Source: Thiohalomonadales bacterium (GTDB taxonomy: Bacteria > Pseudomonadota > Gammaproteobacteria > RBG-16-57-12). Taken from it: DNA of 64,000 nucleotides. Location: contig JBNKQQ010000033.1 in the NCBI GenBank assembly GCA_050295955.1, positions 76,988 to 140,987 of the forward strand, written 5' to 3'. This document shows positions 13,988-37,546 of the stretch, one piece after another. A program made the position numbers and the translations under genes. The stretch's first letter is position 1, and the number at the start of each line of letters is the position of its first letter. A model generated the notes under the pieces. It worked only from the letters and a program-made list of their open reading frames with translations. It was not told the origin of the DNA and made no database searches.

Positions 13988-14092
13988 ACGTTATCATTTT
14001 AGGGAGATGAATTGATATCGCTATATTTGGTGGAGCAGAGTGACGGTATTCAAGTATTGGATGTCGACCATCCTTGTAACTTAGTGGAGTAG

Positions 14093-14215
14093 GGGGGCAT
14101 CGCCCACCAGCATTGGTTAATCAAGAGCCTTAGAGGTGATCATCTCTAAGGCTTTTTTGTTGCTCGAAGCACCTCATAAGCTGCCAAATTTTCACCATCA
14201 AAATAGAGGTATTCA
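14093..14215. repeat. direct repeat copy A2 (second copy of the glmS terminator region)
   Basis: It is a near-duplicate of 12415..12530 and includes the same terminator hairpin gccttagaggtgatcatctctaaggctttttt. Confidence 0.8.
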
Positions 14216-14380
14216 AGGTGATATTTTTTAAGGTAATGTCTAGGGTAAGGGATTTTGTTCACCACCATTGCGATGAGGGAGATGATGGGCACGGGGAATA
14301 AGGATGGTGATTTTCTAGTATTGTGGGAGCCTCCTGCTTGCAGGCGATTGGGTTTGTTTCAGCAAACGCTGGAGGAATTG

Positions 14381-14690
14381 TATCACTGCGTGATGGTTTG
14401 TATTTATCGCTAGCGCGATGGAGGGGATGTCACTGCGTGACGGTGAATTGATACAGGGTTTCGCCCCCGCGCGACGAGTTCATTTTCTGTAACGCGACAG
14501 AAAACGAAACCAAAAGAACGCGCCCGAAAATACAGGTCACAAACAACGCGACTTCCCTCAGTTCTCGCTACGAATGGTACTACTGGCAACTGATTCGGGA
14601 CAGACATGCCATCCGCTTAACCCATTCGTAGCTGTGAGCCTCGGCTGCATTTAAACGGGATGTGAAAGGCATTTTATGTTTTGCTAATGC
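14381..14690. repeat. left inverted repeat (IR-L) of the STAND/recombinase element
   Basis: Its reverse complement aligns with 19685..19930. There is a ~100-bp near-identical core (cgacgagtt.attttctgtaacgcgacagaaaacgaaaccaaaagaac...cccgaaaatacaggtc) plus further similar flanks. The outer end carries two copies of tcactgcgtga, at 14383 and 14430. Confidence 0.8.
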
Positions 14691-14754
14691 AAAAGAAGAA
14701 GAGCGGCTTCGCGGTGTTTAATGGCTGGTTCTACTTCAGAGCGGACAAATTGAT

Positions 14755-14815
14755 GTAGGGTGGGCATCGCCCACCAGCGAGATGGAACGGTGGGCCGTGC
14801 CCACCCTATATGGCT
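14755..14815. repeat. REP-like palindromic element (tagggtgggcatcgcccacc ... ggtgggccgtgcccacccta)
   Basis: It is a long near-perfect palindrome. Related half-sites occur at 14093-14112 and 36536-36570. Confidence 0.6.
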
Positions 14816-15012
14816 GAAAAACCCGTTGGAGCCTTTGGTAGCTGATTGATTGAATGTCAGCTATCGGGTAGAGGGCAGCAAAGTCGCGAAAGCTGCCATT
14901 TATGACTTCATCTACAAATAAATAATTTGTGCCCAGCTATTTGGCACAATGCACTTTCAATATTAGGCTCAGCTAATGACAATTAGATTGTTATCTTACA
15001 AGGCAATACTTT

Positions 15013-18000
15013 ATGAATAGTCTCTGGGCTGTCCCAATATCGTCAGTTATTTCGCTTAGCCCTGAGCGGGCTGTAGATGTAATCCGTGCTATTCTCCGGG
15101 CAGAATGTGCCTACGCCAAGCTAGGCCCATCGGCATTAACTATTTCCGATAGACTAATGACCCCAGATGGCGGTATCGATGCAGAAGTCAACACATCCCA
15201 TGGACAAATCCCGGGAGATTGTATTTTTCAATCTGGTATTACCGGATTTCAGATTAAATCAGGAACCACATTCAAGCCTTGGACATCGAATTCAATCAGA
15301 GGTGAATTACTTAATAGTAAAGGGGAGTTATGCTCTGAGGTTGAGAGGCTTCTTAAACGAAAAGGTCACTACTCGATTATTTGCACTGGCCACGATCTGA
15401 CACCAGAGCAGCGTAATGATGCAAAAGCTCTGATCGTGGCTGTTCTGGCAGAAAAAGGATATGAAGAATACGAGCAGATTGTCGATGTTCTCGGAGCAAG
15501 TCAAATCGCAGAATTTTCTGAGCGCTATCCTGGAATAGCATCTCTATTGACGATTGATCCCGTTCAGGAAGCCTGGACTCTTGATGAGTGGCGACATGAC
15601 GCTCATATGACAAACGCATTCGAAGAGTCTCCGAAACAGACTGAAATAATCTCCCATATCCGCGCAGGCCTGTTGGGAGAAACTAAACATATTCGTATTC
15701 TTGGGGAAGCTGGCTTAGGTAAGACTCGAATCGTTCTTGAGTCATTGAAAGATGAGACCACCTCACCCTATGTTCTTTATATACAGCATGGTTCTCAGTT
15801 TGGTCAGACAAAACTTTTTCGCCAGTTACTGAAATCTGGTCATGACAAACCACTCATATTGGTCATAGATGAACTTCCTGAGAGCGAACTCTCAGATATA
15901 TGGAGGCATCTAAAGCCACGCTGTGGTCATTTGAAAATTGTTTCAATGGATCATGGACGAGATGAAACACGCGATGAAGAAATTGATCGAATAAATACGC
16001 CATATCTGTCAGACGATACAATTAAAAAGATACTTGCCCATCGCGTTGGGGAATCACCAGAGCTAGATCGGTGGATCAAAATCTGCGAAGGATCACCCCG
16101 AGTAGCCCAAGCCGTTGCTGACAATCTGTGCGCTAATCCCGCCGACTTATTAAAGCCACCAGCTACGATACCCATTTGGACAAGGTTTCTTCATGGATAT
16201 GGAAGCAGGGATGAAGCAAGTGCAAGGCAAATTGATTGTGTTGCACAGCATTTAGCACTATTCAGTCGGTTTGGTTATGAAGCTCCAGTTGGAGAGGAAG
16301 CAGCGTATATTGCTGAACTAATTCGCAATATTGACCCAACTATTGGCTGGGCTCGCTTTCAAGAAATAGTACAAGACCTTCGTGCGCGAAGAGTGTTACA
16401 AGGTAGTCGAACGCTATTTTTCGTTCCCAAGGCCCTGCATATCTATTTGTGGAAACAATTTTGGGAGCGTTATGGTCGAGGGTTTGATTTTACTCGAACA
16501 TTTTCCTCCATGCCGGAGTCTCTGCATACTTGGTTTATGAATATGTTCAAATATGCGGGTGAGGCTGATACTGCTCATGTTATTGATGATATTCTTAACT
16601 TAAAAGGCATTTTCTCTCAAAATGAGGTCATAAAATCAGAAAAGGGATCTCAGTTTCTAGCCATTCTAGCAGAGGCTAGTCCTGCTTCAGTATTGAGACT
16701 TCTTGAAGCTACTATTGGAAAATGGACTAACGAAGAATTGTTGAAATTAAGGGGAAATAGACAACATTTCGTCTGGACACTTGAGAAGATTGCGGTTTGG
16801 CCGAGCTACACTGTTAGAGCAATGCAACTGCTAATCCGATTGGCGGTTAATGAAAATGCTAGAAATTCTAATAACTCTACGGGAACGCTACTTGGCCTCT
16901 TTCGCATAGGCCCTGAGTGGGCTGCAACGGAATCCTCCCCTGATGCAAGACTCCCAGCTTTTCTGAAACTTCTTCGAGCTCAGAGTGATGCTGAGCGACA
17001 TCTTGGACTTAAAGCTGCAGAAGCATCGCTCGAAACCCGTGGCATGGGGTTTAGAACCGTTGGCCCTGAGTATCAGGGTTTAAAAGAAAGAGCAAAATTA
17101 TGGATGCCCGAAACATATGGTGATTGGTGGCAAGCTCAGTTCGTTTATTTTCAGACTTTGGTTAATGAAACAAAAAATTGGCCATCTCATCTTCGTCCTG
17201 AAGTTTGTAATGCATTACTTAATGCTGTTGAACACCAGATAAGAATACCACTATGTACGGAGCTAGCTTTTCAGGTACTAGATACACTTGTTAATGATGA
17301 TGCAATGCTGCCAGAAAAGTTAAATAGTTTCTTTTGGCATTGGAGAGAATATAAGGATGATGGTAAACATCCTGCAATAACAAAGAGACTACAAATACTT
17401 GAACGCCGCTACACGAGGCGTGACTTAGTAAGTCGATTTAATCGTTATGTGCTTGATGTGGATTGGCTCGAGTGGGAAGAGGGGCGTAGAGAGCAGAGAG
17501 GAAAGACTAGATCACGTGCAAAGGTAATTGTAAAAGTTTTGGCTCGCCGTATAGCGCGATCTCCTGAGAAGTTTAATGAAATTCGTCATCTTATTACTCC
17601 AGAGAAAAGTGCTCATGGGTTATGGTTTTTTGGAGAGCAGCTTGCAAAAAACGATGCTGATAGAATTTTTTTACCTCAACTCATTGAGGCTACCCTTACG
17701 GCTAAACACCAAACCTGTTTATACGGTTATCTTTCTGAATTAAGGAAAGACAATGAAGAGCTATACACTACAGCTATTAATGGTTTTCTTGATTCGGAAA
17801 GCACTGCTTGGTTAGGGGGACATATTGTACTTAGCTCCGATTACGATGATGATTTGTTTGTGAAGTGCTTGAATGTATTGCGTAAGGAATGGATTTCTCC
17901 CCAAGAGTTCAGCTCACTTCGATATGGGAAGTCAATAGATCACGTTCCTAAGGAACGGCTAGAAAATTTATTTCAACAATTAAATTCCCGTCAATCTGAG

Positions 18001-18786
18001 GAGTCTATGTGTTTATTGATCGAGTTACTGGACTCGATTCCATTTAACGAGTCCTCTCCAGTTGATTCAAAATTTGTATTTGGAGCGGTATCACGGTTTG
18101 TGCCTGGTGATGAAGGCGCAGAGCTAATGAGGGGATATCACTGGAAAAGTGTATGTCAAAAGTTAATTAAGTGGGATGAAAGCTGTGTATTACCTTTACT
18201 TGACGTTTTGCTTACTAAGATGGGAGACGTATATCGGTTAAGCTATGACTCGGATGTTGAGCCTCTTTCGGCCGAGTTAGTACAAGCAAATCCTTCAGGT
18301 GCTTGGGGAATTATAAAAGTGCATTTCGAAGAGACTCTCCCAAAATGGCGAGGTGATCTATTGAACTGGCTTAAAGGAGGGGTAGGAGGGTTTGAAGAAA
18401 GAGAGACTAGAGGAGTAATAAGGGATTTACCACTTCAGGAAATCCTTGAGTGGATAAATGAAAACCCTGAGTCTAGGGCTGGCCTTATAGCTCATGCTGT
18501 TCCTAGAACACTCGATGACGTAAACGGAGGAGAACTTACACGTGAGTTACTTCGTAAATACGGGCAGCTTCCCGGAGTTCAAAGCGGTATTAGTGCTAAT
18601 TTCCACTCTGGAGGGTGGAGTGGACCTACAAGTGCATATTTGAAACGTAAGAGGGAGAAATTTCGTCGATGGTTGGCTGCTGGATTTGATTATGAGATAA
18701 CTCAGTGGATTGAATCAGAGATTGAATACCTTGACCGAAATATAGAGCGCGAGGAAATTGATGAGGAACGCTCTCGATTCGATTAG
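15013..18786 (+). CDS. Avs-like antiviral STAND NTPase candidate with N-terminal Mrr-like (PD-(D/E)xK) nuclease domain
   Basis: The N-terminus has DGGIDAEV ... GFQIK, an Mrr_cat-like D...QxK motif. It has a Walker A ILGEAGLGKTR and a Walker B PLILVIDELPE. About 800 aa of helical C-terminus follows, which is probably a repeat/sensor region. Confidence 0.6.
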   Translation: MNSLWAVPISSVISLSPERAVDVIRAILRAECAYAKLGPSALTISDRLMTPDGGIDAEVNTSHGQIPGDCIFQSGITGFQIKSGTTFKPWTSNSIRGELLNSKGELCSEVERLLKRKGHYSIICTGHDLTPEQRNDAKALIVAVLAEKGYEEYEQIVDVLGASQIAEFSERYPGIASLLTIDPVQEAWTLDEWRHDAHMTNAFEESPKQTEIISHIRAGLLGETKHIRILGEAGLGKTRIVLESLKDETTSPYVLYIQHGSQFGQTKLFRQLLKSGHDKPLILVIDELPESELSDIWRHLKPRCGHLKIVSMDHGRDETRDEEIDRINTPYLSDDTIKKILAHRVGESPELDRWIKICEGSPRVAQAVADNLCANPADLLKPPATIPIWTRFLHGYGSRDEASARQIDCVAQHLALFSRFGYEAPVGEEAAYIAELIRNIDPTIGWARFQEIVQDLRARRVLQGSRTLFFVPKALHIYLWKQFWERYGRGFDFTRTFSSMPESLHTWFMNMFKYAGEADTAHVIDDILNLKGIFSQNEVIKSEKGSQFLAILAEASPASVLRLLEATIGKWTNEELLKLRGNRQHFVWTLEKIAVWPSYTVRAMQLLIRLAVNENARNSNNSTGTLLGLFRIGPEWAATESSPDARLPAFLKLLRAQSDAERHLGLKAAEASLETRGMGFRTVGPEYQGLKERAKLWMPETYGDWWQAQFVYFQTLVNETKNWPSHLRPEVCNALLNAVEHQIRIPLCTELAFQVLDTLVNDDAMLPEKLNSFFWHWREYKDDGKHPAITKRLQILERRYTRRDLVSRFNRYVLDVDWLEWEEGRREQRGKTRSRAKVIVKVLARRIARSPEKFNEIRHLITPEKSAHGLWFFGEQLAKNDADRIFLPQLIEATLTAKHQTCLYGYLSELRKDNEELYTTAINGFLDSESTAWLGGHIVLSSDYDDDLFVKCLNVLRKEWISPQEFSSLRYGKSIDHVPKERLENLFQQLNSRQSEESMCLLIELLDSIPFNESSPVDSKFVFGAVSRFVPGDEGAELMRGYHWKSVCQKLIKWDESCVLPLLDVLLTKMGDVYRLSYDSDVEPLSAELVQANPSGAWGIIKVHFEETLPKWRGDLLNWLKGGVGGFEERETRGVIRDLPLQEILEWINENPESRAGLIAHAVPRTLDDVNGGELTRELLRKYGQLPGVQSGISANFHSGGWSGPTSAYLKRKREKFRRWLAAGFDYEITQWIESEIEYLDRNIEREEIDEERSRFD

Positions 18787-18904
18787 TTTACTTCCAAGCA
18801 TATAGTCTTGATGCTTGTAAGGCCGTGATAGATTGAGTGAATTTACCGCTTTGTCTATGTTGCTGACTTCTAGAGCCCCTGGGTGAGTACCCAGGGGCTT
18901 TGTT

Positions 18905-19558
18905 TTAGACCTCTATCCTCTCTGATATTTCTAGTGCATCATCCACCTCAATCCCCAGATACCTGACAGTACTCTCTAGCTTGGTATGACCGAGGAGCAA
19001 TTGAATGGCTCTCAAGTTATGAGTTTGGTGGTAAATCAGCGATACCTTCGTCCTGCGCAATGAGTGAGTTCCATAATCAGCAGGATCTAGTCCTATATCA
19101 GTGACCCACTGCTCAACTATCCTGGCATATTGGCGAGTTGAGATATGAGGTGAATCATGAAAGCGACTTTGAAAGAGATAGTCATCATATTTCAAGGTCT
19201 GATGTGCTATCAGATTTGTTACTGCTATTCTCGTCTGATCAGTGATTTCAAATTGAACAGGCTGCTTGGTTTTCTGTTGCATGATCATGGCTCTTTTCAA
19301 TATAGATAAACCATGTGAGATGTCGCTGACTTTTAGGCTTACTAGGTCACAGCCCCGTAGCTTACTGTCGATGGCTAAATTGAATAGTGCGAGATCCCGG
19401 ATGTTGTTTGCCAGCTGAAGTCGTATGCGAATAGCCCAGATCTCTTGAAGCTTGAAGGGAAGTTTCTGCCCAACGAGCTTTCCTTTGTTCCAAGGGGAAT
19501 GGGGAGATGTTGATAGAGTGCTCATGTTGAATCCTCCATTTTGGTTTAGGGGATTCAA
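18905..19558 (-). CDS. short tyrosine site-specific recombinase (FimB/FimE-size, phage-integrase family catalytic domain)
   Basis: It is 217 aa. It has HSLRRT and LLGHTKLESTVRYL, consistent with the R...HxxR...Y catalytic residues, and it lacks the long N-terminal arm-binding domain of integrases. Confidence 0.75.
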   Translation of the reverse strand: MNPLNQNGGFNMSTLSTSPHSPWNKGKLVGQKLPFKLQEIWAIRIRLQLANNIRDLALFNLAIDSKLRGCDLVSLKVSDISHGLSILKRAMIMQQKTKQPVQFEITDQTRIAVTNLIAHQTLKYDDYLFQSRFHDSPHISTRQYARIVEQWVTDIGLDPADYGTHSLRRTKVSLIYHQTHNLRAIQLLLGHTKLESTVRYLGIEVDDALEISERIEV

Positions 19559-26966: not shown

Positions 26967-27016
26967 TCTTCATATTTACCTTGTCACTGGCTTAGGATGT
27001 TTTAAGTGGTATAAGG

Positions 27017-27049
27017 CTTGACCTGTGTGTTACACACAGGTTGTATAGT
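27017..27049 (+). promoter_or_regulatory. MerR-type promoter with operator dyad between -35 and -10
   Basis: There is a -35 ttgacc, then a 20-bp spacer containing the perfect palindrome acctgtgtg-tta-cacacaggt, then a -10 tatagt. Confidence 0.75.
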
Positions 27050-27083
27050 TGTCTCATTGGTAGTCAAAACGGAGCCCAAGGCT

Positions 27084-27497
27084 ATGATGAAGGTGAGTGA
27101 ACTAGCGAGTTTAGCCAACGTAACCCAAGATGCGGTACGTCACTATGTGCGTATTGGTTTGTTAACGCCATTGCGTGATGAAACCAATGGTTATAAGTTA
27201 TTTTCTGAACAGGACCTCCAGCTGGTCCGGTTTATCGGCCAAGCCAAACGGCTTGGTTTTTCCCTCCAAGAGATTAAACAAATCTTTCAGCAAAGTGGCC
27301 AAGGGGCTTCACCCTGTCCAATGGTTCGAGAGCTTTTGCAGCAGCGTATTACTGAGAACCAGCAAAAAATAGCAGAACTGACGGCTCTTCAGGCGCGAAT
27401 GGAGCAGGCTTTAGGTCAGTGGCAATCCATGCCCGATGGTACGCCAGATGGTCATTCTGTATGTTGTTTGATTGAGTCCTTAGGAGAGCCGCTATGA
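27084..27497 (+). CDS. MerR-family heavy-metal-responsive transcriptional regulator (CueR-like)
   Basis: It has an N-terminal MerR HTH ([26 protein letters not shown]), a dimerisation helix and C-terminal Cys residues (SPCP, VCC). The start was moved to MMKV because the longer ORF overlaps its own promoter. Confidence 0.85.
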
Positions 27498-29983
27498 ATA
27501 CTTCACTGGATAAAACAACGTCTACGGATGAGTTGCCGCTGCACGATCCTGTCTGTGGTATGGAGGTGACGACCGACTCTATTCATCAAGCGGAATACCA
27601 AGGAAAGACTTACTACTTTTGCAGTCAGCACTGTCAGTATAAGTTTAGTGCGGCACCGGCTCAATACCTCGAAGTGGATGAGAAACCGGCGCATAGTTGT
27701 TGCTCCGCCCATGGCGCTTCCCATCATGCCCAGCAACCAGCTAGCCCGGTGGATGAAACGGCTATTTATACATGCCCGATGGACCCAGAGGTGGAGCAGG
27801 TGGGGCCTGGTACCTGTCCAAAATGTGGCATGGCTTTGGAGCCTAAATCGATTCCTCTGGCGAGTACTAAAACAGAGTACATCTGCCCAATGCACCCTGA
27901 GGTAATACAGGATCAACCAGGTGATTGCCCAATATGCGGTATGGCCCTGGAGCCCAGAACCGTCGCGGTGGATGAAGCCAATCCTGAGCTGGATGACATG
28001 TCGCGTCGGTTTTGGGTAAGTGTGGTCTTTGCCTTACCGGTATTTGGCTTATCAATGATGGCAGACATGGCACCGCAGCTGTTGGCAGGTGTGCTTTCTG
28101 TGAAGAGCATCCAGTGGATCTTATTTCTATTATCAACACCTGTGGTACTTTGGTGTGGCTGGCCGTTTTATCAACGGGCAGTGCAATCCGTGCGTAGCGG
28201 ACACCTCAACATGTTTACCTTGATCGGCCTCGGTGTCTCGGTTGCCTGGATTTACAGTCTATTCGCACTCTTTGCACCACAGCTATTTCCGCCGGCTATG
28301 CAGGGTGAGGGAGGCAGAGTACATGTCTATTTTGAAGCGGCAGCCGTCATTACCTGTTTGGTGCTATTGGGGCAGGTACTGGAACTGCGTGCCCGTTCAC
28401 GCACTAATGCGGCTATCAAGCTGCTGTTAGGATTAGCACCAAACACTGCGCGTATTGTGGGGGACGATGGTAGTGAAAAGGATATTCCACTTGAGCAGGT
28501 GCAACCGGGTGATGTGCTGCGGGTGAGGCCCGGTGAAAAAGTGCCTGTGGATGGTGTGGTGCTAGAGGGCGACAGTCACATCGATGAATCCATGGTGACG
28601 GGGGAACCGGTTCCTGTGGCGAAACATGCAGGGGAAACGCTGATTGGCGCAACCGTAAATGGTACGGGGAGCTTATTGATGCGTGCGGAAAAGGTGGGGG
28701 CCGACACCTTGCTAGCTCAGATTGTGAACATGGTGGCCGAAGCACAGCGCTCTCGCGCACCCATTCAAAAAATGGCAGATCAGGTGGCGGGTTACTTTGT
28801 GCCGACGGTGGTTTTGATATCCATCCTTACCTTTATTGTATGGAGCCTATTTGGGCCAGAACCTGCGCTCGCTTTTGCGGTAGTTAATGCCGTTGCCGTG
28901 TTGATCATTGCATGTCCATGTGCCTTGGGGTTGGCCACACCCATTTCTATTATGGTGGGTACCGGGCGGGGCGCAACGGAAGGGGTGTTAATTAAAAATG
29001 CCGAGTCCTTAGAGATAATGGAAAAGATCGACACCTTGGTGGTGGATAAGACAGGGACCTTAACTGAAGGTAAGCCCGAGCTGGTCTCCATTATCACTTC
29101 CGGGGCGTTTGATGAAGCGGTTGTTCTCAGGCTGGCAGCAAGTTTGGAACGGAGTAGCGAGCACCCCTTGGCTGAAGCCATTGTGCGCGGTGCGGAAAGT
29201 CGAAATATCACCTTACAAAGTGTGAATCACTTCCAGTCGATTACCGGTCAGGGCGTGACGGGTGATGTAGAAGGGCATCAGGTGGCATTGGGTAACCTCA
29301 AACTGCTAGCGGGCTTCAATATTGATACCTCAGCTTTAAGCGCACAAGCAGACCAACAGCGTAGTCTGGGGCAAACCGTTATGTTTGTGATGATCGACGG
29401 GAAGCCTGCAGGGCTCATTGGGGTCGCCGACCCCATTAAACCCTCCACACCAGAAGCCATTGCGGCTTTGCACCAGGAAGGCATCGAAGTGGTTATGCTC
29501 ACGGGAGATAGCCGAAAGACGGCAGAGGCCGTGGCGAATCAACTTGGTATTGATCAGATTCAGGCTGAAGTGCTACCCGAACAAAAGGCCGAAGTGATTA
29601 AACAGCTTCAAGCGCAAGGCAAAGTGGTGGCTATGGCGGGTGATGGCATTAACGATGCGCCAGCACTAGCTCAGGCTCAGGTGGGTATCGCTATGGGCAC
29701 AGGTACCGATGTGGCAATGGAGAGTGCCGGGGTGACACTGGTTAAAGGGGATCTGCGGGGCATTGTCCGTGCCCGTCGCCTATCACGTGCCACAATGCGC
29801 AACATTCGACAAAACCTTTTCTTTGCCTTTGTTTATAACTCATTGGGCGTACCTATTGCCGCAGGCGTACTTTACCCGGTATTTGGTGTATTACTGTCGC
29901 CTATGATTGCCGCGGCGGCAATGAGCTTTAGCTCCGTATCCGTTATTACTAATGCGCTACGCCTTCGAAAGGTGAGTTTGTAA
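27494..29983 (+). CDS. copA: copper-translocating P1B-type ATPase
   Basis: It has an N-terminal TRASH/YHS-like domain (CGMEV...CSQHC) and two CPMxPE...CPxCGM metal-binding repeats. It also has the CPC transmembrane motif, the DKTGTLT phosphorylation site and GDGINDAP. Confidence 0.93.
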
Positions 29984-29990
29984 TTTCACG

Positions 29991-30030
29991 ATAACCCGCA
30001 AAGCGCCCAAGCCTTGCGGGTTATTTAATG
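29991..30030 (+). terminator. putative terminator after copA
   Basis: The hairpin aacccgcaaag-cgcccaagc-ctttgcgggtt is followed by a weak T-run. Confidence 0.5.
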
Positions 30031-30135
30031 ACATCACTGTGAGCAGATAAATAAAGCAACTTTAAAGAGGTTTAGATATCTCTCTTCCTACCGCAATCCA
30101 TATACCCATCACATAACCTATCAGGAGAGATGTAG

Positions 30136-31905
30136 ATGTTGATTAATGGAAAGCGCCCCAACTTTTTGCTTATCACTACCGACGAAGAACGATACCCACC
30201 TGTTTATGAAAACCCCGAAGCAAAGGCCTACCGATTGGAGCACAGTAAAGCCATCAGGCGCATGTGTAGCCAGGGGATGCGCTTTACCAACCACTATACC
30301 GCTAGCACCGCCTGCGCACCCAGCCGAGCTTCCATCTATACCGGTCAGTACCCTTCGCTACACGGTGTAAGCCAAACGCCAGGCATTGGCAAATCTTCAT
30401 TTGATGAAAATATGTTCTGGCTGGAGCCCAATACGGTGCCTACCCTGGGTAACTATTTCCGCACTGCAGGCTATCAAACCTGGTACCACGGCAAGTGGCA
30501 TATCTCTTACGAGGATATCGACGTACCCGGTACACAGACTGGCCTACTCAGTAACGACATCAACGGAAACCCCTTTCCAGAGCGCATACGTCTCTATGGT
30601 GAATCAAACCGCCTGGATAAATTCGGTTTTGATGGCTGGATTGGTCCCGAGCCACACGGTGCTCTACAGCAAAACGATGGTACCGCCCGGGACCCAGGCT
30701 TCGCGGATCAAGTCTGTCGTACCTTAAAACATCTGGATCAACAGGCGCAGCAGGGGGATGACACACCGTTCCTGTTAGTTTCCTCCTTCCTCAATCCCCA
30801 CGATATTGTTTTGGCGGGGCAGTTACAGGCGTCCTGGTTCCCAGAATTTCAACAGGCACAGGCAAACGGTACGCTGCCAAAAGTGGATAAAGCTCCCACC
30901 GCCGACGAACCCCTGGCCAGCAAGCCCCGCTGCCAACAGGACTATCGTTATACCTATCCACGCATGTATCTGCCGCAGATGGATAACGAAACCTATCGCC
31001 AGTTCTACTACTTCCTAATGGCCCAGGTGAACACCCATATCGATAAAGTCTACGCCACACTACAAGGAACCTCTTTCGCGGATAACACCATCGTGGTGTT
31101 CTTCTCCGACCACGGCGAAATGCTGGGCGCCCACGGCGGCCTGCATCAGAAGTGGTACAACGCCTACCAAGAGACAATCCACGTACCCTTCATTGTCTCC
31201 AATCCCATACTCTTTGACGGTGCTAAAGAGAGCGATGTGCCTACTTCACATGTAGACCTGTTGCCTACGTTACTGGGCTTGGCTGATATCGACCAGGAAC
31301 AGGCTCGTAAAACGTTATCGGAAAACCACAGCGAAGCGCGGCCACTGGTAGGCAAAGACTTATCAGAACTGATTGCGAATGGTAAAAAAGTGGATGACGA
31401 AACTATCTACTTCTGCACCGATGACAATGTGGAAGTAGGCGAACAGATGAACAATCCCGTTACTGGCGTTGCCTACAATGCCATTATTCAACCCAAGCAT
31501 ATCGAAACCGTAGTGACCCGGCTGCCCAAGCTCACTGGCGACACCCTATGGAAATACTCCCGCTACTTCGATAATCCCCGTTTCTACGCCACCAGCGGAG
31601 CAATATCCACAGTCGCTACCAATAACGGAAACCTCCTAGGCGCGCTCCCTGCCACCGGCAATCCCGACGGCATTACTACCGCACGCTTCATCCCACCAGA
31701 ATATGAGTGCTACAACCTCAATGAAGATCCACTGGAAGAGATCAACCTCATGTCACCAGTCTCCACCAAAAAGTTAGACAAAAAAATCCACCAGGCACTG
31801 GAACAAGTACTCCACCAACAACGGGAAGCCAAACGCCTCCTCCCCCATACCCTAAACGACCAACAAGAGATCGCACAAAAGATAGAAGTTCCAATACGGA
31901 ATTAG
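30136..31905 (+). CDS. sulfatase (formylglycine-dependent, arylsulfatase family)
   Basis: It has the CAPSRASIYTG (C-x-P-x-R) formylglycine motif. No obvious signal peptide is present. Confidence 0.88.
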   Translation: MLINGKRPNFLLITTDEERYPPVYENPEAKAYRLEHSKAIRRMCSQGMRFTNHYTASTACAPSRASIYTGQYPSLHGVSQTPGIGKSSFDENMFWLEPNTVPTLGNYFRTAGYQTWYHGKWHISYEDIDVPGTQTGLLSNDINGNPFPERIRLYGESNRLDKFGFDGWIGPEPHGALQQNDGTARDPGFADQVCRTLKHLDQQAQQGDDTPFLLVSSFLNPHDIVLAGQLQASWFPEFQQAQANGTLPKVDKAPTADEPLASKPRCQQDYRYTYPRMYLPQMDNETYRQFYYFLMAQVNTHIDKVYATLQGTSFADNTIVVFFSDHGEMLGAHGGLHQKWYNAYQETIHVPFIVSNPILFDGAKESDVPTSHVDLLPTLLGLADIDQEQARKTLSENHSEARPLVGKDLSELIANGKKVDDETIYFCTDDNVEVGEQMNNPVTGVAYNAIIQPKHIETVVTRLPKLTGDTLWKYSRYFDNPRFYATSGAISTVATNNGNLLGALPATGNPDGITTARFIPPEYECYNLNEDPLEEINLMSPVSTKKLDKKIHQALEQVLHQQREAKRLLPHTLNDQQEIAQKIEVPIRN

Positions 31906-31955
31906 GGACTTCTGCAGAAGTTTCCAGGATAGAGAGCCGGCGAAAGCCGGCTTTA
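31861..31955. repeat. direct repeat copy B1 (sulfatase 3' end + terminator hairpin), paired with 32647..32745
   Basis: The sequence caacaagaga...gaagttccaatacggaattagggacttctgcagaagtttccaggatagagagccggcgaaagccggcttt recurs after parE with about 88% identity. Confidence 0.8.
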
Positions 31956-32026
31956 TAACAACATATGTATATTATTGACAATTTGTTGTTTGTAGATATG
32001 CTTATATGTATGACATATAGAGCGAG

Positions 32027-32293
32027 GTGTATCTTATGCGTCTTTCCATTGAAATAACCCCAGAACAACATCAAAAACTAAAGGCCATTGCCGCTCTGCA
32101 AGGTAAAACCATCAAAGACTACGTTCTTGAGCGTTCGTTACCCAACTTTGGGGATGATGACAGTAAGGCTCTGGAAGCGCTAGAGAACTTCCTCAAACCT
32201 AGAGTTAAAGCGGCAAAGAATGGTGATTTCTCAGAAAAATCAGTGAGCGATATATTTGACGAGATTGAGAAGGGGGATGACTCCCAGCAATGA
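32027..32293 (+). CDS. type II antitoxin, ParD/RHH-like
   Basis: It is an 88-aa RHH-type protein (MRLSIEITPEQHQKLKAIAALQGKTIKDYV) that is translationally coupled (caATGA) to the toxin gene. Confidence 0.75.
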   Translation: MYLMRLSIEITPEQHQKLKAIAALQGKTIKDYVLERSLPNFGDDDSKALEALENFLKPRVKAAKNGDFSEKSVSDIFDEIEKGDDSQQ

Positions 32294-32598
32294 CTTCATA
32301 TCGTTTAACGAAAGATGCAGAAAATGACCTGAGAAGTATCGCCCGCTACACACTAGATAATCACGGCAGCAAACAACTTCAGCTATACCGAAGCAAGCTT
32401 GAGGCTAAATTCTTAGAGATAGCTGAAGGGACAGTGATAGCCAAATCATTCTCCTTAAATATACCCGAAGTTCTCGTTACAAGATGTGAGCATCACTTTG
32501 TGTTTTTCCTCTCAGGCAACCCAGCCATCATCATTGCGATTCTTCACGAAAAAATGGACATGATTTCACGTTTAGGGAAGCGCTTAGATAATGAGTGA
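32290..32598 (+). CDS. type II toxin, ParE/RelE family
   Basis: It is a 102-aa protein with a ParE-like N-terminus (YRLTKDAENDLRSIARYT), and its start overlaps the antitoxin stop. Confidence 0.8.
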   Translation: MTSYRLTKDAENDLRSIARYTLDNHGSKQLQLYRSKLEAKFLEIAEGTVIAKSFSLNIPEVLVTRCEHHFVFFLSGNPAIIIAILHEKMDMISRLGKRLDNE

Positions 32599-32646
32599 TG
32601 GTTACTAATGTTAAATAGACTAATCAAGGTAGATATCCTCAATAAC

Positions 32647-32745
32647 CAACAAGAGAGGGTGCAGAAAATCGAAGTGCCAATACGGGATTAGGGACTGCTT
32701 CAGAAGTTTCCAGGAAAGAGAGCCGGCGAAAGCCGGCTTTTTTAT
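32647..32745. repeat. direct repeat copy B2 (relic of sulfatase 3' end + terminator)
   Basis: It translates in the equivalent frame to QQERVQKIEVPIRD*, compared with the sulfatase C-terminus QQEIAQKIEVPIRN*. It ends in the same gccggcgaaagccggc hairpin, with a better T-run. Confidence 0.8.
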
Positions 32746-32936
32746 AATCGATTGTCTTTTCAGGGGTTTTACATAAGTAGGGGTATAGCGGCTAATTTAA
32801 GGCTAGTTTATGGCTAATTGTTTTATTGATTTCAAGAAAGCTGGACTTCAACAAACTCATCAAGCTAAACCTGAGAAAAGTGCAAGGCACAGGGCGAGGC
32901 ACTTATTATGTGTTAGCTACAGCTTAGTGCCAATCC

Positions 32937-33194
32937 TCAATCAAGCGCCACCTTTGTGATCATCACAGCATCACTCTCCAACTGCTCTGCCTGTTTAAGC
33001 ACCAGATTCGTGATTGCCTGAATCGTGGCTTGCACCTCTTCAGTGTAATCGGGTTGGCCCATTAGCATGGGCAACTGGCTGCGTAGCACTTTGATCATTC
33101 GCTTTATCTCACGAACCAACAAGCGGCGATCGATACCACAGCGATCAGCAAAATCGGCCCAATTAAATGCGCGGACTTTATGATAGCGGCTCAA
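32937..33194 (-). CDS. hypothetical protein (downstream of XRE regulator, overlapping)
   Basis: It is an 85-aa ORF that overlaps the XRE gene stop by 17 nt. No motif was recognised. Confidence 0.35.
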   Translation of the reverse strand: MSRYHKVRAFNWADFADRCGIDRRLLVREIKRMIKVLRSQLPMLMGQPDYTEEVQATIQAITNLVLKQAEQLESDAVMITKVALD

Positions 33195-33483
33195 TGGCCG
33201 CCAGGGTCTTTGGTAACTTTGCTTTAGGCACTGCCAACAGGATCAAACCCAATTGCTGCGCTACCGCCAAAGCCTTATTCAGGCCGACAGAGCGACGGCC
33301 ATTCTCCAAATCAGAAAGCAGTTGCACCGAAACCCCACACAAAGCCGCCGCATCATCAATGCGCAGCTGCTGCTGAGTCCGCAAACTTCGGATAAACGCC
33401 CCAAAAGCCTCCGCCGAATCAACCTGAGGGGAGTCAGGAAAAGGACGTGGTGTAATTTTTCTCGCCATAGAATATTTCTCCAA
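33178..33483 (-). CDS. XRE-family HTH transcriptional regulator (antitoxin-like)
   Basis: It carries the HTH_XRE signature LRTQQQLRIDDAAALCGVSVQLLSDLENG. Confidence 0.8.
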   Translation of the reverse strand: MEKYSMARKITPRPFPDSPQVDSAEAFGAFIRSLRTQQQLRIDDAAALCGVSVQLLSDLENGRRSVGLNKALAVAQQLGLILLAVPKAKLPKTLAAIEPLS

Positions 33484-33852
33484 TATGAGAAACTATGGAT
33501 GATAATTGGCAGGAATGGCAATAATTACTCGAAAATGAGAAATAAAGTGGATGAATAGCCTGGAAAGGAAATAATTTATTAAATATGAGAAATAAATGGA
33601 GTGATTATCGAATGTGATTGCTTTTTTCTGCGGCTTGTAGGTTGGACGTCCTTGGTTTTAGGACAAAGGACAGAAAAGAGAGAAAGTAAGGGAAAAGTCT
33701 AGTGCTCAACTTAAGGAATCAACTTGTGCTGATCTCTTATTTACATTGCAATGTAATTTCAGGGTGGTATTTGACCGTTTTTGACAAAATTAACCTTTTA
33801 ATTTGATTGATGCCTGGGTAGGGTATATAAGTAAGTCAGATATCGTCAAATA

Positions 33853-35145
33853 ATGGGGTCTAATGGAATGCTTGTAGAGTTTAGTGTTGCAAATTTTCGC
33901 TCAATTCAGCAGCGGCAGACCTTGAGCTTGATCCAATCGAAGCTGAAAGAAGCTGCTAGTCTCAAAGAAAATAGTTTTAATAACAATGGGTTATCAGCTT
34001 TGTCCTTGCTTCGCTCCAGTGCGATTTATGGCCCTAATGCAGCGGGTAAAAGCAATCTTTTGCTTGCTCTACGGGAGATGAAGCGGTTGGTAGTGGCGTC
34101 ATCTACTGAGATGCAGCGGGGAGACGAGCTGGATATTATTCCGTTTCGTTTGGATGCTGATTCTCGACAATCTCCCAGTGAGTTTGAGGCTATTTTTATC
34201 ACTGAGGGTGTTCGCTACCAATATGGCTTTGCTGCTACCAATAGCCGAATTATTGAAGAGTGGTTGATTGCCTTTCCTAAGGGGCGTGCCCAGCACTGGT
34301 TTGCTCGTCAGTGGGATGAAGCGCAAAGTGAATACCAATGGCAGATGGGTAATGGCCTTCAAGGGCAAAAGCAACTATGGATGGACGCTACCCGCTCTAA
34401 TGCCTTGTTTCTTTCAACGGCTGTTCAGCTCAATAGTCAACAGCTACAGCCAGTGTTTGATTGGTTTTCTGAAATGCTTCGGATGACCAGTGTTTCGGGA
34501 TGGTCCCCTGGTTTTACTGCTTCACTGTGCGATAAGCCTGCCTCAAAAGATAAGGTGATGGATTTTCTTAGAGCAGCAGATATTGATATTGATGACGTAG
34601 TAGTTGAGAAGAAGAAGTTTGATTATAAAGATCTGCCAGATGAAATGCCCGATGAGGTGAGACAAGAACTTCGCCAGAAGCTGGAAGGGAAGGAGTTGAT
34701 TTCTAAATTAAGTACTGTTCATCGGGATAGACAAGGCGGGCCAGTCACCTTTGATTTTGATGAAGAGTCTGATGGGACGCAGAAGCTTTTTTCATTTGCA
34801 GGTCCTTGGCTGGATACGCTGGAAAAAGGTTATGTTTTGGTGATTGATGAGTTACACGATAACCTTCATCCAAAACTGGTTCAGTTCTTGGTTAAGCTTT
34901 TTCATAGTGATAAAACTAATCCTAAAAATGCTCAGCTGGTATTTACCACCCACGAAACATCTATTCTTAGTAGTGAAGTGTTTCGTCGTGATCAAATTTG
35001 GTTCTGTGAAAAAGGTGCCTCCCGAGAAACTCAGCTTTTCCCTCTGACTGACTTTGGTGCAAGAACAAGGGAGAATTTAGAAATGGCTTATTTAGCCGGG
35101 CGCTTTGGTGCATTGCCTTTTACCCGTGAATTAAAACGAGTATAA
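33853..35145 (+). CDS. AAA/ABC-like ATPase (AAA_21/RloA/OLD-N-terminal type)
   Basis: It has an N-terminal P-loop IYGPNAAGKSNLL, a Walker B/D-loop region VLVIDELHDNLHP and a C-terminal FTTHETSIL, which is the typical AAA_21 abortive-infection ATPase layout. Confidence 0.85.
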   Translation: MGSNGMLVEFSVANFRSIQQRQTLSLIQSKLKEAASLKENSFNNNGLSALSLLRSSAIYGPNAAGKSNLLLALREMKRLVVASSTEMQRGDELDIIPFRLDADSRQSPSEFEAIFITEGVRYQYGFAATNSRIIEEWLIAFPKGRAQHWFARQWDEAQSEYQWQMGNGLQGQKQLWMDATRSNALFLSTAVQLNSQQLQPVFDWFSEMLRMTSVSGWSPGFTASLCDKPASKDKVMDFLRAADIDIDDVVVEKKKFDYKDLPDEMPDEVRQELRQKLEGKELISKLSTVHRDRQGGPVTFDFDEESDGTQKLFSFAGPWLDTLEKGYVLVIDELHDNLHPKLVQFLVKLFHSDKTNPKNAQLVFTTHETSILSSEVFRRDQIWFCEKGASRETQLFPLTDFGARTRENLEMAYLAGRFGALPFTRELKRV

Positions 35146-35150
35146 GAAAT

Positions 35151-35828
35151 ATGGGGGGAGGTGATAAGCTTTTTCAAAAGCGAAAGGCAAAAAATACTGA
35201 AGGCCTACGTAGGAAGCAGGCAAAGCGCTCTCCCTATGATAAGGTGTTGATTGTCTGTGAGGGGGAGAAAACCGAGCCCAACTATTTTCGTGAGTTAAGG
35301 GATTACTACCGACTGAATACGGCCAATGTAGAGGTGACAGGGGAGTGTGGTTCATCACCTATTAACGTTTTGCAGAAGGCTCAGGAGCTATATCGAGAGG
35401 CTCAGCGTAATATACCCTTTGACCGGGTTTATTGTGTGTTTGATAAAGATACCCATCAAACGTATGGTCAGGTTTTAAATGCCATAGACTCTTTGTCACC
35501 TAAAGAAACTTTCTTCGCGATCAATTCTGTACCTTGTTTTGAATATTGGTTGTTGCTGCATTTCTGTTATACCACTCAACCATTTTACGGAACCAATGGT
35601 GGCAAGAGTGCCGGGGATCAGGTGTTAGAAGAATTAAAAGTATACATTCCCAATTATGCTAAGGGGAATCAAGGCTATTTTGAAGCGCTGATACCACAGT
35701 TGCCTCAGGCAATCGCATACGCTAAGCGGGCGCTTGCGGAAGCGCAGAAAAGCGATACAGACAATCCAAGCACACATATACATGAGTTGATAGAGTACCT
35801 TCAGGGATTGGCTGTTGCTAATAACTAA
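35151..35828 (+). CDS. RloB-like / OLD-TOPRIM-like protein, partner of the AAA ATPase
   Basis: It is a 225-aa protein with LIVCEGEKTEPNYF (a TOPRIM-like acidic motif) and it lies 5 bp downstream of the ATPase gene. Confidence 0.6.
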   Translation: MGGGDKLFQKRKAKNTEGLRRKQAKRSPYDKVLIVCEGEKTEPNYFRELRDYYRLNTANVEVTGECGSSPINVLQKAQELYREAQRNIPFDRVYCVFDKDTHQTYGQVLNAIDSLSPKETFFAINSVPCFEYWLLLHFCYTTQPFYGTNGGKSAGDQVLEELKVYIPNYAKGNQGYFEALIPQLPQAIAYAKRALAEAQKSDTDNPSTHIHELIEYLQGLAVANN

Positions 35829-35917
35829 AGTCTGTAGCCAGTAGATTGATGCTGAGCTTGCGAAGCCCAACATAAGCCGCTGATATTTGAGTTAAGTATG
35901 CTGCACGTAATAAGGCA

Positions 35918-35975
35918 CATGTGAATAAGCCAAGTAGGGAGACACATTTTTTATGTCCACAGAAAAATGCTACAT
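35918..35975. repeat. direct repeat copy C1, paired with 36425..36482
   Basis: The sequence aagccaagtagggag(a/g)ca(c/t)atttttt(a/g)tg(t/c)ccac(a/g)gaaaaat is about 85% identical between the copies. Confidence 0.7.
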
Positions 35976-36063
35976 GACTTAAGTGCACTATCTGATATTA
36001 AAAAATAGGATCAATGGGAGATCTCATTGATTTATTGTTTTATTTAATTAAGGTTGATGAAAT

Positions 36064-36426
36064 ATGATGAAAAAGCTAATTATGCTAGTTTGTTTTATGA
36101 TGGTTACATGCTCTGCTTTTGCAGACCCTGTTAGTATCGCAAAAGGGACGGCAGCAAATTATACCGGAAAGATAGCAAGCGTTGGCGTTGGATTTTATGA
36201 ACATGTAGGAGTTCGTCTTTCCGGTGGTGACACTTGCCATGGAAGTAATATTATAGTTTTGCTTAATACTGACCCTCAATATAAAGAGATGTATTCTTTG
36301 CTACTTTCTGCATATACAACACAATCTGAGATAAACATCCATCAGTTAGGTGCTCAAGACTCGACTTTTGGGATTGGTTATTGCGTAATCAATTATATTT
36401 CACTTGGGGATTTCCCTAATTGGTAA
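36064..36426 (+). CDS. small secreted protein, unknown function
   Basis: It has the signal peptide MMKKLIMLVCFMMVTCSAFA and is 120 aa. It is bracketed by ~50-bp direct repeats. Confidence 0.5.
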   Translation: MMKKLIMLVCFMMVTCSAFADPVSIAKGTAANYTGKIASVGVGFYEHVGVRLSGGDTCHGSNIIVLLNTDPQYKEMYSLLLSAYTTQSEINIHQLGAQDSTFGIGYCVINYISLGDFPNW

Positions 36427-36482
36427 TCAAGCCAAGTAGGGAGGCATATTTTTTGTGCCCACGGAAAAATACCTCTTCATGA
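36425..36482. repeat. direct repeat copy C2
   Basis: See copy C1. Confidence 0.7.
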
Positions 36483-36569
36483 TAGTGAGCTGTCGATGAT
36501 AACTCATTTTATGTGATGAACTGATTAGCTTTCGCGTGGGCACAAAATGCGTGCCCACCCTACATTGCT

Positions 36570-37460
36570 TTATTTCGAGGTGTTACTCAAACCCAACATC
36601 CTCTTCTTACAAACCTCTTCTGTCAGCACTTGTAATTTTTTCACTCTCTCTTCCAAATAGTTAAGCTCTTCTTCACTAATGCTGTAGTGCTCTGAATATC
36701 GTGCATCGATATAGGCATTTTTTAGCTGTGCGAAGCAGCGGCGTTGGAATTTGGTGTTGCCGGGGAAGGTGTCGTGGTAGCGGCCATCCTGTTGGTTGCA
36801 GAGGGAGCGTAGGCGTTTTAGGTTGTGGGTTTTGGGGAGGTAGTTGGTGGTGACGAGTAATGTGCAGGCGAAGAAGCGTTCTGTGGCTTGGTGTAATTCA
36901 AAAGCCGCTTTATTTAGCTTTCCTCTACTTTTGTCAAAGTTAGATGTAATAAGAAAGTCTGAAGCGCTTTCGAACCATTTTTCAAAATGCTTTTCCGCAA
37001 TTTCTTTTTGTTCTTCCACTGTGAGTTTGCCGGGTGGTACAAGCGCTTTATTTCCAGTGGTGTAGAGTTCGATGCCTTGTTCGCGGATGTCTTTGAAGAA
37101 GTACTGGCCTTGGGCTAGGCATGTGTTGATGTCGTCCAGGGTATGGACGATGAGGCCGAAGGGGGCGTTAATTTTGAGATCCACCCAGTCTTCAATTTTG
37201 TGCCATAGCTTGCTCTCATCTGGCAGCTCAGCATGGTTCACGATTACCAGAATATCATAGTCACTGAGGTAGCCATTTTCTGGGTCTTCTACCCAGTTGC
37301 CAGTGGCGTAGCTACCGAAGAGAATGATCTTATAGATACGGGCGCCCAGTTTGTTGCCTTCACCATGGGTGAAGCGGTCGAACTCCTCCCGTACGATATT
37401 GACGATAGTCTGAATATCGCGCTGCTTGGTTTCTGGTAAATGATCGAGGCTGGTTTTCAT
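36570..37460 (-). CDS. fused nucleotidyltransferase (MNT-like) + HEPN domain protein
   Basis: The N-terminus has GSYATG...DYDILV, the minimal NTase GS...DxD motif. The C-terminus is a helical domain with DARYSEHY, an R-x-x-x-H HEPN-like motif. Confidence 0.65.
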   Translation of the reverse strand: MKTSLDHLPETKQRDIQTIVNIVREEFDRFTHGEGNKLGARIYKIILFGSYATGNWVEDPENGYLSDYDILVIVNHAELPDESKLWHKIEDWVDLKINAPFGLIVHTLDDINTCLAQGQYFFKDIREQGIELYTTGNKALVPPGKLTVEEQKEIAEKHFEKWFESASDFLITSNFDKSRGKLNKAAFELHQATERFFACTLLVTTNYLPKTHNLKRLRSLCNQQDGRYHDTFPGNTKFQRRCFAQLKNAYIDARYSEHYSISEEELNYLEERVKKLQVLTEEVCKKRMLGLSNTSK

Positions 37461-37546
37461 CGCTTCATCATACTATGGGGCGGGTTTTGATCCAACTGGT
37501 GGTTGAGGGGGCCCCCTTGCGTGCAACCCCCTGTGCTGATGACGCT

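Follow-up and report, generated by a model that had tools for sequence, protein, structure and literature searches.

A probable AbiL-type ATPase–RloB anti-phage cassette in a low-GC islet of a Thiohalomonadales bacterium

The stretch of Thiohalomonadales bacterium DNA analyzed here (64,000 nucleotides of contig JBNKQQ010000033.1, positions 76,988 to 140,987; "the window", to whose first letter all coordinates refer) contains two adjacent genes that encode an ABC ATPase and a small protein of the RloB family. In the list of open reading frames (ORFs) of the window, the ATPase ORF is open over 33853–35145 on the plus strand (430 amino acids, aa) and the RloB ORF over 35151–35828 on the same strand (225 aa). 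The ATPase stop codon is separated from the RloB ATG by 5 bp. An earlier annotation made from the DNA letters, here called the sequence-only reading, had described two genes of these lengths and this spacing, and both are confirmed. We consider the locus to be an AbiL-type (RloA/RloB-type) two-gene anti-phage cassette inside a small low-GC toxin-antitoxin/defence islet, with a probability of roughly 70%. The two genes and their flanking signals are as follows.

33803–33831, plus strand: candidate sigma-70-like promoter (TTGATT, 17 nt, TATAAG), picked by eye with low confidence, ~35 nt 5′ of the probable ATPase start
33868–35145, plus strand: abiLi-like gene for an ABC ATPase (Rad50/SMC-like, AAA_21), 425 aa, identified by Pfam and PADLOC, with its start inferred from homologues
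35151–35828, plus strand: abiLii-like gene for an RloB-family protein, 225 aa, a putative TOPRIM/OLD-like metal-dependent nuclease effector, identified by Pfam (RloB) and PADLOC (AbiLii)
36008–36043, plus strand: terminator-like hairpin with a T-rich tail after it, 180 nt past the RloB stop codon, a consensus match only

The true start of the ATPase is probably the ATG at 33868 (M6), giving 425 aa instead of 430, because an identical database protein has 425 aa, the homologues have 423–425 aa and, in most loci, homology by tblastn is seen from residue 6 onwards. The consensus N-terminus of the homologues is MLIEFSV. The candidate promoter was not listed by the promoter scan because its −10 hexamer ends in G.

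Both ORFs are real genes rather than chance ORFs. Pfam assigns the first protein to AAA_21 (E = 3e-36) and the second to RloB (PF13707; E = 2.5e-41, profile positions 1–195 of 195), both far beyond chance. PADLOC identifies the first as AbiLi (PDLC02335; E = 8.4e-98, 325 bits, residues 4–427) and the second as AbiLii (PDLC02337; E = 7.8e-32, residues 14–221), while NCBIfam offered no specific model for either protein. By the PADLOC definition (AbiLi plus AbiLii), the pair is AbiL: both profiles are matched, and the genes lie side by side in the same orientation and are conserved together. A conserved two-gene module of an AAA_21 ATPase and an RloB-family protein, as proposed in the sequence-only reading, is thus borne out by Pfam and PADLOC. 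The search of defence-system profiles that it had recommended returned a defence call, with AbiL in place of PARIS; its PARIS-like candidate therefore keeps its place in the ATPase plus TOPRIM/OLD-like defence class and loses its family name, there being no AriB/DUF4435 match. Its further statement that such pairs are mostly uncharacterized does not hold for this type, since PADLOC, a standard tool, recognizes it and a phage phenotype is on record for the lactococcal founder (PMC13064643). The pair is a further copy of the catalogued AbiL/RloAB type, within the wider group of OLD-like ABC ATPase plus TOPRIM systems, and is distinct from PARIS, from RloAB embedded in type I restriction-modification (R-M) loci and from a fused OLD or Gabija protein.

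Comparison with related loci reveals how tightly the two genes are linked. A genome scan with one genome per species gave 80 loci with RloB relatives, spanning Gamma-, Beta-, Alpha- and Deltaproteobacteria, Nitrospirae, Campylobacterota, Chloroflexi and DPANN archaea. In 79 of the 80, the RloB gene is immediately preceded on the same strand by an ATPase homologue; at the one exception the contig provides just 90 bp of upstream DNA. Viral and prophage contigs contributed 70 further loci, with the ATPase adjacent wherever upstream DNA is present (59 clean cases and 5 with overlapping ORF calls). In the 67 loci with a placeable start codon, the median gap between the two genes is 0 nt and ~96% have a gap no longer than 10 nt, a spacing consistent with translational coupling. 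The identities of the ATPase and the RloB protein to their window copies correlate over 113 loci (Spearman 0.71, Pearson 0.83). The RloB family itself is very large, with 10,369 representatives of 50%-identity clusters at E ≤ 1e-3 and 927 at E ≤ 1e-30, and both window proteins are 60–80% identical to many full-length relatives.

The surroundings of these pairs are variable. The immediate neighbours in the 80 loci carry 174 Pfam families among 139 genes, with no recurrent third gene; HTH_3 occurs at 5 of the 139 positions and type I R-M domains at 3–4. PADLOC found components of type I R-M, Hma, CBASS (cyclases), DarG, Dpd, DISARM, Zorya and BREX among the neighbours, and many of the contexts, not all, are defence islands. 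One 70%-identical relative sits between glutamine amidotransferase and glyoxalase genes, without defence neighbours, and another (loci L172/L173) adjoins a plasmid replication gene (Rep3) and a pair of SIR2_2 and DUF87 genes. Pairs of this kind make up the main cargo of many mobilizable plasmids of 3.5–5.3 kb from Escherichia, Klebsiella, Enterobacter, Salmonella and Acinetobacter (e.g. NZ_AP027646.1 and NC_016979.1); one of the plasmid homologues carries the annotation RloA. Co-divergence of the two genes, together with their variable neighbours, therefore identifies the module as an autonomous, horizontally mobile cassette whose two genes are co-inherited. A tblastn search of the plasmid collection returned a full-length ATPase match on a Fusobacterium varium plasmid (2e-27), which ties the window ATPase to the genus whose AbiL homologue was assayed by Dy et al. 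No Lactococcus plasmid was among the genera reported from that collection, and the AbiL founder was not recovered there.

All motifs that the sequence-only reading had quoted were found in the ATPase and the RloB protein. Those of the ATPase are given below in 430-aa numbering, with their conservation among 50 homologues of 61–80% identity.

34030–34062, plus strand: Walker A/P-loop GPNAAGKSNLL, residues 60–70; G and K invariant
34765–34791, plus strand: ABC signature-like ESDGTQKLF; E, S, G and T invariant
34834–34872, plus strand: Walker B and D-loop VLVIDELHDNLHP, residues 328–340; D, E, H, L, H and P invariant
34942–34968, plus strand: H-loop FTTHETSIL, residues 364–372; T, T and H invariant

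The Walker A lysine is K66 in this numbering and K61 in that of the 425-aa protein. The segment VLVIDELHDNLHP had been labelled a D-loop; it is present, and it covers Walker B as well as the D-loop, with the ABC signature-like ESDGTQK before it. As the residues of the Walker A, signature, Walker B, D-loop and H-loop motifs are invariant in the 50 homologues, the ATPase is expected to be enzymatically active. Its AlphaFold 2 (AF2) model is poor, with a predicted local distance difference test score (pLDDT) of 60, probably because the alignment is shallow, and was used for superfamily assignment only. In Foldseek, this model matched the heads of Rad50, SbcC, SMC and RecF with E down to 3e-5. AbiLi has been published as a Rad50/SMC-type ABC ATPase (PMC13064643), in agreement with the Pfam and Foldseek results here.

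The AF2 model of the RloB protein (pLDDT 87; predicted template modelling score 0.82) has the order β1 (residues 32–36)-α-β2 (60–63)-α-β3 (92–98)-α-β4 (121–127), followed by a helical C-terminal part. Conservation was assessed in a close alignment (n = 45) and in a diverse one (A5; n = 47, members 21–49% identical). The motifs are:

35247–35288, plus strand: TOPRIM-type Glu motif LIVCEGEKTEPNYF, residues 33–46, at the end of predicted strand β1
35436–35456, plus strand: VFDKDTH, with the DxD that ends predicted strand β3 (92–98)
35526–35561, plus strand: SVPCFEYWLLLH, just past predicted strand β4; S126, F130, E131 and H137 invariant or nearly so
35652–35666, plus strand: NYAKG, in the C-terminal helical part, with Y169 and K171

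E37 directly follows the predicted strand 32–36 and is invariant in the 45 close and the 47 diverse members. In the acidic motif CEGEKTE, which had been proposed for a Glu-to-Ala mutant, E37 and E42 (the latter invariant or nearly so) are conserved, but the middle residue E39 varies (G/K/S/A/T/V); the target for such a mutant is therefore E37, not E39. D98 is invariant, and D100 is invariant in the close set and Asp, Glu or occasionally Asn in the diverse set. In the close alignment Y169 is invariant and K171 nearly so; in the diverse one the reverse holds. Overall, E37, Y45, D98, F130, E131, H137, K171 and A187 are invariant across the diverse members, and G38, K40 and E42 nearly so. Of the glycines following strand β2, G64 and G67 reach at least 90% in the close set; in the diverse set Gly is the consensus but falls below 90%.

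A TOPRIM domain is defined by a Glu after the first strand, a Gly after the second and a DxD motif after the third (PMC6755086). At the level of motifs, the RloB protein agrees with this definition in E37 (after β1) and D98xD100 (ending β3), with a Gly after β2 in most members, and the predicted order of strands and helices suits a TOPRIM domain. Residues E400, E404, D455/D457, T506/E508 and K562 of Bp OLD are paralleled in order by the motif Glu of RloB, a second Glu five residues on, the DxD, a Ser/Glu pair past β4 and a Lys. By this analogy, the metal-B residues T506 and E508 of Bp OLD may correspond to S126 and E131, and its catalytic lysine K562 to K171 (PMC6755086). Judged from the alignments, the invariant acidic residues and the lysine of RloB follow the same order as the two-metal active site of OLD-type TOPRIM domains. 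At the place of LIVCEGEKTEPNYF in the window protein, P2 Old has LLVEGKTETNVLY; the hhhhEGxxTE pattern of the window motif resembles the LLVEGKTE of P2 Old.

Profile comparison reaches part of the same region. A 290-sequence RloB profile aligned by hhalign with an 89-sequence profile of the Old TOPRIM domain at P = 0.003 and a probability of 10% over 35 columns. RloB residues 34–70 were placed on Old 395–435, taking in the Glu motif (the VEGKTE region of P2 Old), helix 1, strand 2 and the Gly. Controls with a reversed template and with the ATPase half of Old gave P = 0.45 and P = 0.15, respectively. A narrow RloB profile aligned against the single P2 Old sequence gave nothing. A homologue search with the P2 Old TOPRIM fragment yielded 5 fragments only, and tblastn of this fragment on plasmids was without a match.

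The first 30 residues of the RloB protein (35151–35240) form a basic tail before the first strand, predicted with low confidence as a helix. G3, R21 and Y29 are invariant in the close clade, and distant members likewise have a basic tail. It may be an ATPase-docking or nucleic-acid-binding element. As a separate observation, three of the 47 diverse RloB members weakly match the Pfam family DUF4276 (best E = 4e-4; e.g. L147:5938-6531). DUF4276 is another small effector family found beside AAA_15/21 ATPases, so the two families may be related.

The founder of the AbiL type is reportedly the AbiLi/AbiLii pair of the Lactococcus lactis plasmid pND861, said to have been described by Deng and colleagues in 1999. 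The window pair shares with AbiL an operon of a Rad50/SMC-type ABC ATPase gene followed by that of an RloB-like small protein, a likeness established through the PADLOC profiles. In contrast to the founder, which comes from Firmicutes, the window copy belongs to a distant proteobacterial clade, and the conserved basic 30-residue N-terminal tail of RloB is a feature of its close clade. Founder AbiL protects Lactococcus against Skunavirus and partly against Ceduovirus phages, acting at a step after transcription (PMC13064643). A 2026 review regards the mechanism of the family as unresolved (PMC13064643).

Other known systems resemble the pair in part. The RloA/RloB proteins of Campylobacter jejuni, reportedly described by Miller and colleagues in 2005 from type I R-M loci, are similar in that the second window protein is a full-length RloB member and its partner an AAA ATPase. 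The window pair, however, lies outside an hsd locus: no hsd or other restriction-modification gene was found among the larger ORFs scanned within ~20 kb on either side. The comparison with RloA/RloB drawn in the sequence-only reading thus stands for the protein family and not for the setting. The PADLOC candidate system PDC-M12 is also matched, with the ATPase matching PDC-M12A over its full length (1.6e-22) and the RloB protein matching PDC-M12B at the Glu motif only (4.7e-5), but these scores are much weaker than those of AbiL; on profile scores, PDC-M12 is a sister family of the AbiL-type pair, not identical to it. The OLD proteins (P2 Old, Ts OLD, Bp/Xcc OLD) and Gabija GajA likewise combine an ABC ATPase with a TOPRIM domain. 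They do so in one polypeptide, whereas ATPase and nuclease are separate here, and the likeness of RloB to Old is weak (hhalign P = 0.003, 35 columns) and unseen by Foldseek. In PARIS (AriA/AriB of E. coli B185), too, an ABC ATPase from the AAA_15/21 group is partnered by a small protein carrying an N-terminal catalytic Glu, and the likely logic of an ATPase sensor with a nuclease effector is the same (PMC11464382). Its AriB effector, in contrast, is DUF4435 (PF14491), where that of the window is RloB (PF13707).

These likenesses allow a mechanism to be proposed by analogy with PARIS (PMC11464382), OLD and Gabija, together with published toxicity data on AbiLii. An oligomer of the ATPase would bind the RloB nuclease, keep it inactive and act as the sensor of infection. 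A phage-derived trigger, along with ATP binding or hydrolysis, would release or activate the RloB protein. The putative Mg-dependent nuclease would then cut nucleic acid, either tRNA or other RNA (as AriB does) or DNA (as OLD and GajA do), and the cleavage would halt translation or replication and abort the infection. AbiLii of Fusobacterium nucleatum is toxic in E. coli (PMC3985639), and pairs of AAA and TOPRIM_OLD proteins behave as toxin-antitoxin pairs in neutralization assays (PMC10440598).

A number of observations speak against a TOPRIM-type effector held in check by its ATPase. The hhalign probability for RloB and Old is just 10–18%, the alignment stops short of the DxD, and even with greedy realignment (-mact 0.01) the DxD was not confidently aligned with Old. 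Among the Foldseek matches shown for the RloB model against the PDB there is no TOPRIM, OLD, GajA or AriB, and the best are generic three-layer α/β domains with E of 6e-3 or worse. In BFVD, the sole significant match is another RloB-like protein (9.7e-10), and a "Toprim-like" entry scores E = 0.2. HMMER searches of PDB sequences with two RloB profiles (from a first alignment, A1, and from A5) did not reach OLD, GajA or AriB; their matches, to helical or designed proteins and calmodulin, were judged spurious. HMMER against Pfam gave no link from the RloB family to Toprim_OLD or DUF4435. On the functional side, lactococcal AbiLi and AbiLii are not toxic in E. coli, and Fusobacterium AbiLi failed to neutralize AbiLii in trans (Dy et al. 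2014, PMC3985639). As a result, the sequestration model is unproven for the AbiL family. Additionally, AbiL and RloAB are structurally distinct from PARIS according to Deep et al.

Published comparisons place the family with TOPRIM systems. HHpred relates RloB to OLD_TOPRIM (PMC10440598), and AbiL is listed among the ABC ATPase plus TOPRIM systems by Burman et al. (PMC11464382). Taking these comparisons together with the motifs, we regard the RloB protein as probably TOPRIM/OLD-like. The sequence-only reading had called it TOPRIM-like and had made the call answerable to profile and structure comparison. Both were run: the features stand at the level of motifs, the profile signal from hhalign is weak, and the structure comparison by Foldseek gave no TOPRIM among the PDB matches shown.

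It is possible, at somewhat worse than even odds, that AbiL/RloAB cassettes work unlike PARIS, differing in assembly (with the basic RloB tail as a docking or nucleic-acid element), trigger and substrate. Given the size of the family, they would then form a major, mechanistically distinct branch of ATPase-controlled TOPRIM immunity, and the well-conserved proteobacterial clade would be a convenient model.

The pair might instead be chiefly a selfish addiction module of the toxin-antitoxin kind that stabilizes mobile carriers, without a dedicated anti-phage role, which we consider unlikely. On very small mobilizable plasmids its relatives are the principal cargo, and the window copy lies beside parDE, a hipB/hipA remnant and a HEPN-nucleotidyltransferase gene (see below). 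AAA plus TOPRIM_OLD pairs score as toxin-antitoxin in neutralization assays (PMC10440598), and the close relative between glutamine amidotransferase and glyoxalase genes has housekeeping rather than defence neighbours. However, founder AbiL has a phage-resistance phenotype (PMC13064643), and relatives often adjoin R-M, CBASS, Hma, Zorya and BREX genes. An intact 425-aa ATPase would also be a costly "antitoxin", and the Fusobacterium AbiLi did not neutralize AbiLii in trans (PMC3985639). Defence and addiction can moreover coexist.

We find it very improbable that the pair is a type I R-M accessory that works only with hsd genes, in the sense of the Campylobacter RloA/RloB genes. The Pfam name RloB does derive from hsd-embedded rloB genes, and type I R-M subunits occupy 3–4 of the 139 neighbour positions in related loci; the great majority of these loci nevertheless have no type I R-M neighbours, the ORFs scanned around the window pair include no hsd gene, and the pair is found alone on plasmids of 3.5–5 kb. 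There is an even slimmer chance that the genes are a housekeeping DNA-repair pair, comparable to RecF (ABC ATPase) and RecR (TOPRIM), or an inactive relic. The ATPase model does match RecF and Rad50 heads, RecR is among the TOPRIM proteins (PMC6755086) and the adjacent hipA is decayed. A repair role is at odds with the patchy, mobile distribution, the variable contexts, the carriage on plasmids and prophages and the location in a low-GC islet (0.433 versus 0.51), and the intact catalytic motifs and reading frames, with both proteins 60–80% identical to many full-length relatives, argue against decay.

The least probable of these alternatives is PARIS proper, in which AriA senses anti-restriction proteins (e.g. 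Ocr) and frees AriB to cleave tRNA-Lys: the two-gene architecture, an ABC ATPase and then a small protein with an acidic motif, is shared and PADLOC AriA profiles are matched at 1.7e-37 and 9.7e-8, but these matches are read as generic because the profile lengths (304 and 373) equal that of Pfam AAA_21 (304) and nearly that of AAA_15 (374), AbiLi outscores AriA by 325 to 128 bits, neither the window protein nor its 47 diverse relatives match AriB/DUF4435 at E up to 1, and AbiLii and AriB have been reported to lack sequence similarity and to superimpose poorly (PMC13064643), so that PARIS membership is rejected at the family level.

As an AbiL-type cassette, the single locus matters little, since standard defence software labels the module and the family comprises more than 10,000 sequence clusters. 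What it offers is an example of the ABC ATPase plus RloB pairs, a class that is very abundant. The residue map provides targets for mutagenesis in RloB (E37, E42, D98/D100, S126/E131, H137 and K171) and in the ATPase (K61, D327/E328 and H362 in 425-aa numbering).

The pair lies in a low-GC patch of 5.5 kb (32000–37500; G+C 0.433, compared to 0.51 for 27000–31999) that contains toxin-antitoxin or defence-type genes and a small ORF with a signal-peptide-like start. This small toxin-antitoxin/defence islet is in line with the defence role that the sequence-only reading had drawn from the neighbours of the pair. Neither an integrase nor a flanking repeat was seen at the patch. No tRNA gene was found in the whole window, and Rfam, tRNA and tandem-repeat scans of the islet gave no relevant match. 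Its other features are:

32027–32598, plus strand: intact parDE, encoding ParD (88 aa, 1.4e-34) and ParE (102 aa, 2.6e-9), with a 4-bp overlap
32721–32738: GC-rich hairpin and T-run after parDE
32937–33483, minus strand: gene of a HipB/Y4mF-type antitoxin (TIGR03070, 1.5e-11; probable antitoxin start ATG at 33468) and a hipA stump
33474–33596: three ~19-nt partially palindromic repeats (TTTCTC-N6-GAGAAA), exactly 50 bp apart
36064–36426, plus strand: small ORF of 120 aa, located between the RloB and HEPN-nucleotidyltransferase genes, whose N-terminus (MMKKLIMLVCFMMVTCSAFA) resembles a signal peptide
36570–37460, minus strand: fused N-terminal nucleotidyltransferase (NTP_transf_2/Polbeta) and C-terminal HEPN domain, 296 aa, by Pfam, with a weak match to PADLOC PDC-S09 (6.7e-6)

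The ParDE module noted earlier next to the pair is confirmed by Pfam with the above scores. A regulator of the XRE family had also been counted as part of the surroundings of the module. This gene instead encodes a HipB-type antitoxin beside a decayed hipA, its product being 38% identical to that of the helix-turn-helix (HTH) gene preceding a Legionella hipA. An 85-aa ORF (32937–33194) that overlaps it aligns to the last 78 residues (357–434 of 434) of Legionella lytica HipA with E = 4e-10, and the L. lytica hipA follows its HTH gene in the same overlapping layout. BLASTP of the 85-aa ORF gave no resemblance to E. coli HipA; the link came only via the Legionella protein. By this alignment, hipA seems to have lost ~350 codons to deletion, among them the kinase core, which would leave an orphan antitoxin and a stump.

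The three repeats abut the 5′ end of the hipB-like gene and lie >200 bp from the candidate ATPase promoter. The pattern ATGAGAAAYWWW has 3 matches, compared to 0.14 expected by chance, and the repeats are probably operators of the HipB-like repressor. The XRE gene was accordingly rejected as a regulator of the ATPase–RloB pair: it is a HipB-type antitoxin gene with operator-like repeats of its own and a hipA stump, and HTH genes occupy 5 of the 139 neighbour positions of related pairs.

On the other side of the pair, the product of the 120-aa ORF (36064–36426) had no Pfam match even at E up to 10. The nucleotidyltransferase and HEPN domains that are fused in the 296-aa protein occur as separate MNT and HEPN proteins in many toxin-antitoxin systems.

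A second low-GC stretch is present elsewhere in the window, at 12830–19558. It contains a gene for a Fic-domain protein (12830–13987), an ORF of 1257 aa (15013–18786) without any Pfam match and a tyrosine-recombinase fragment of 217 aa (18905–19558, minus strand), and may be the remnant of an integrated element.

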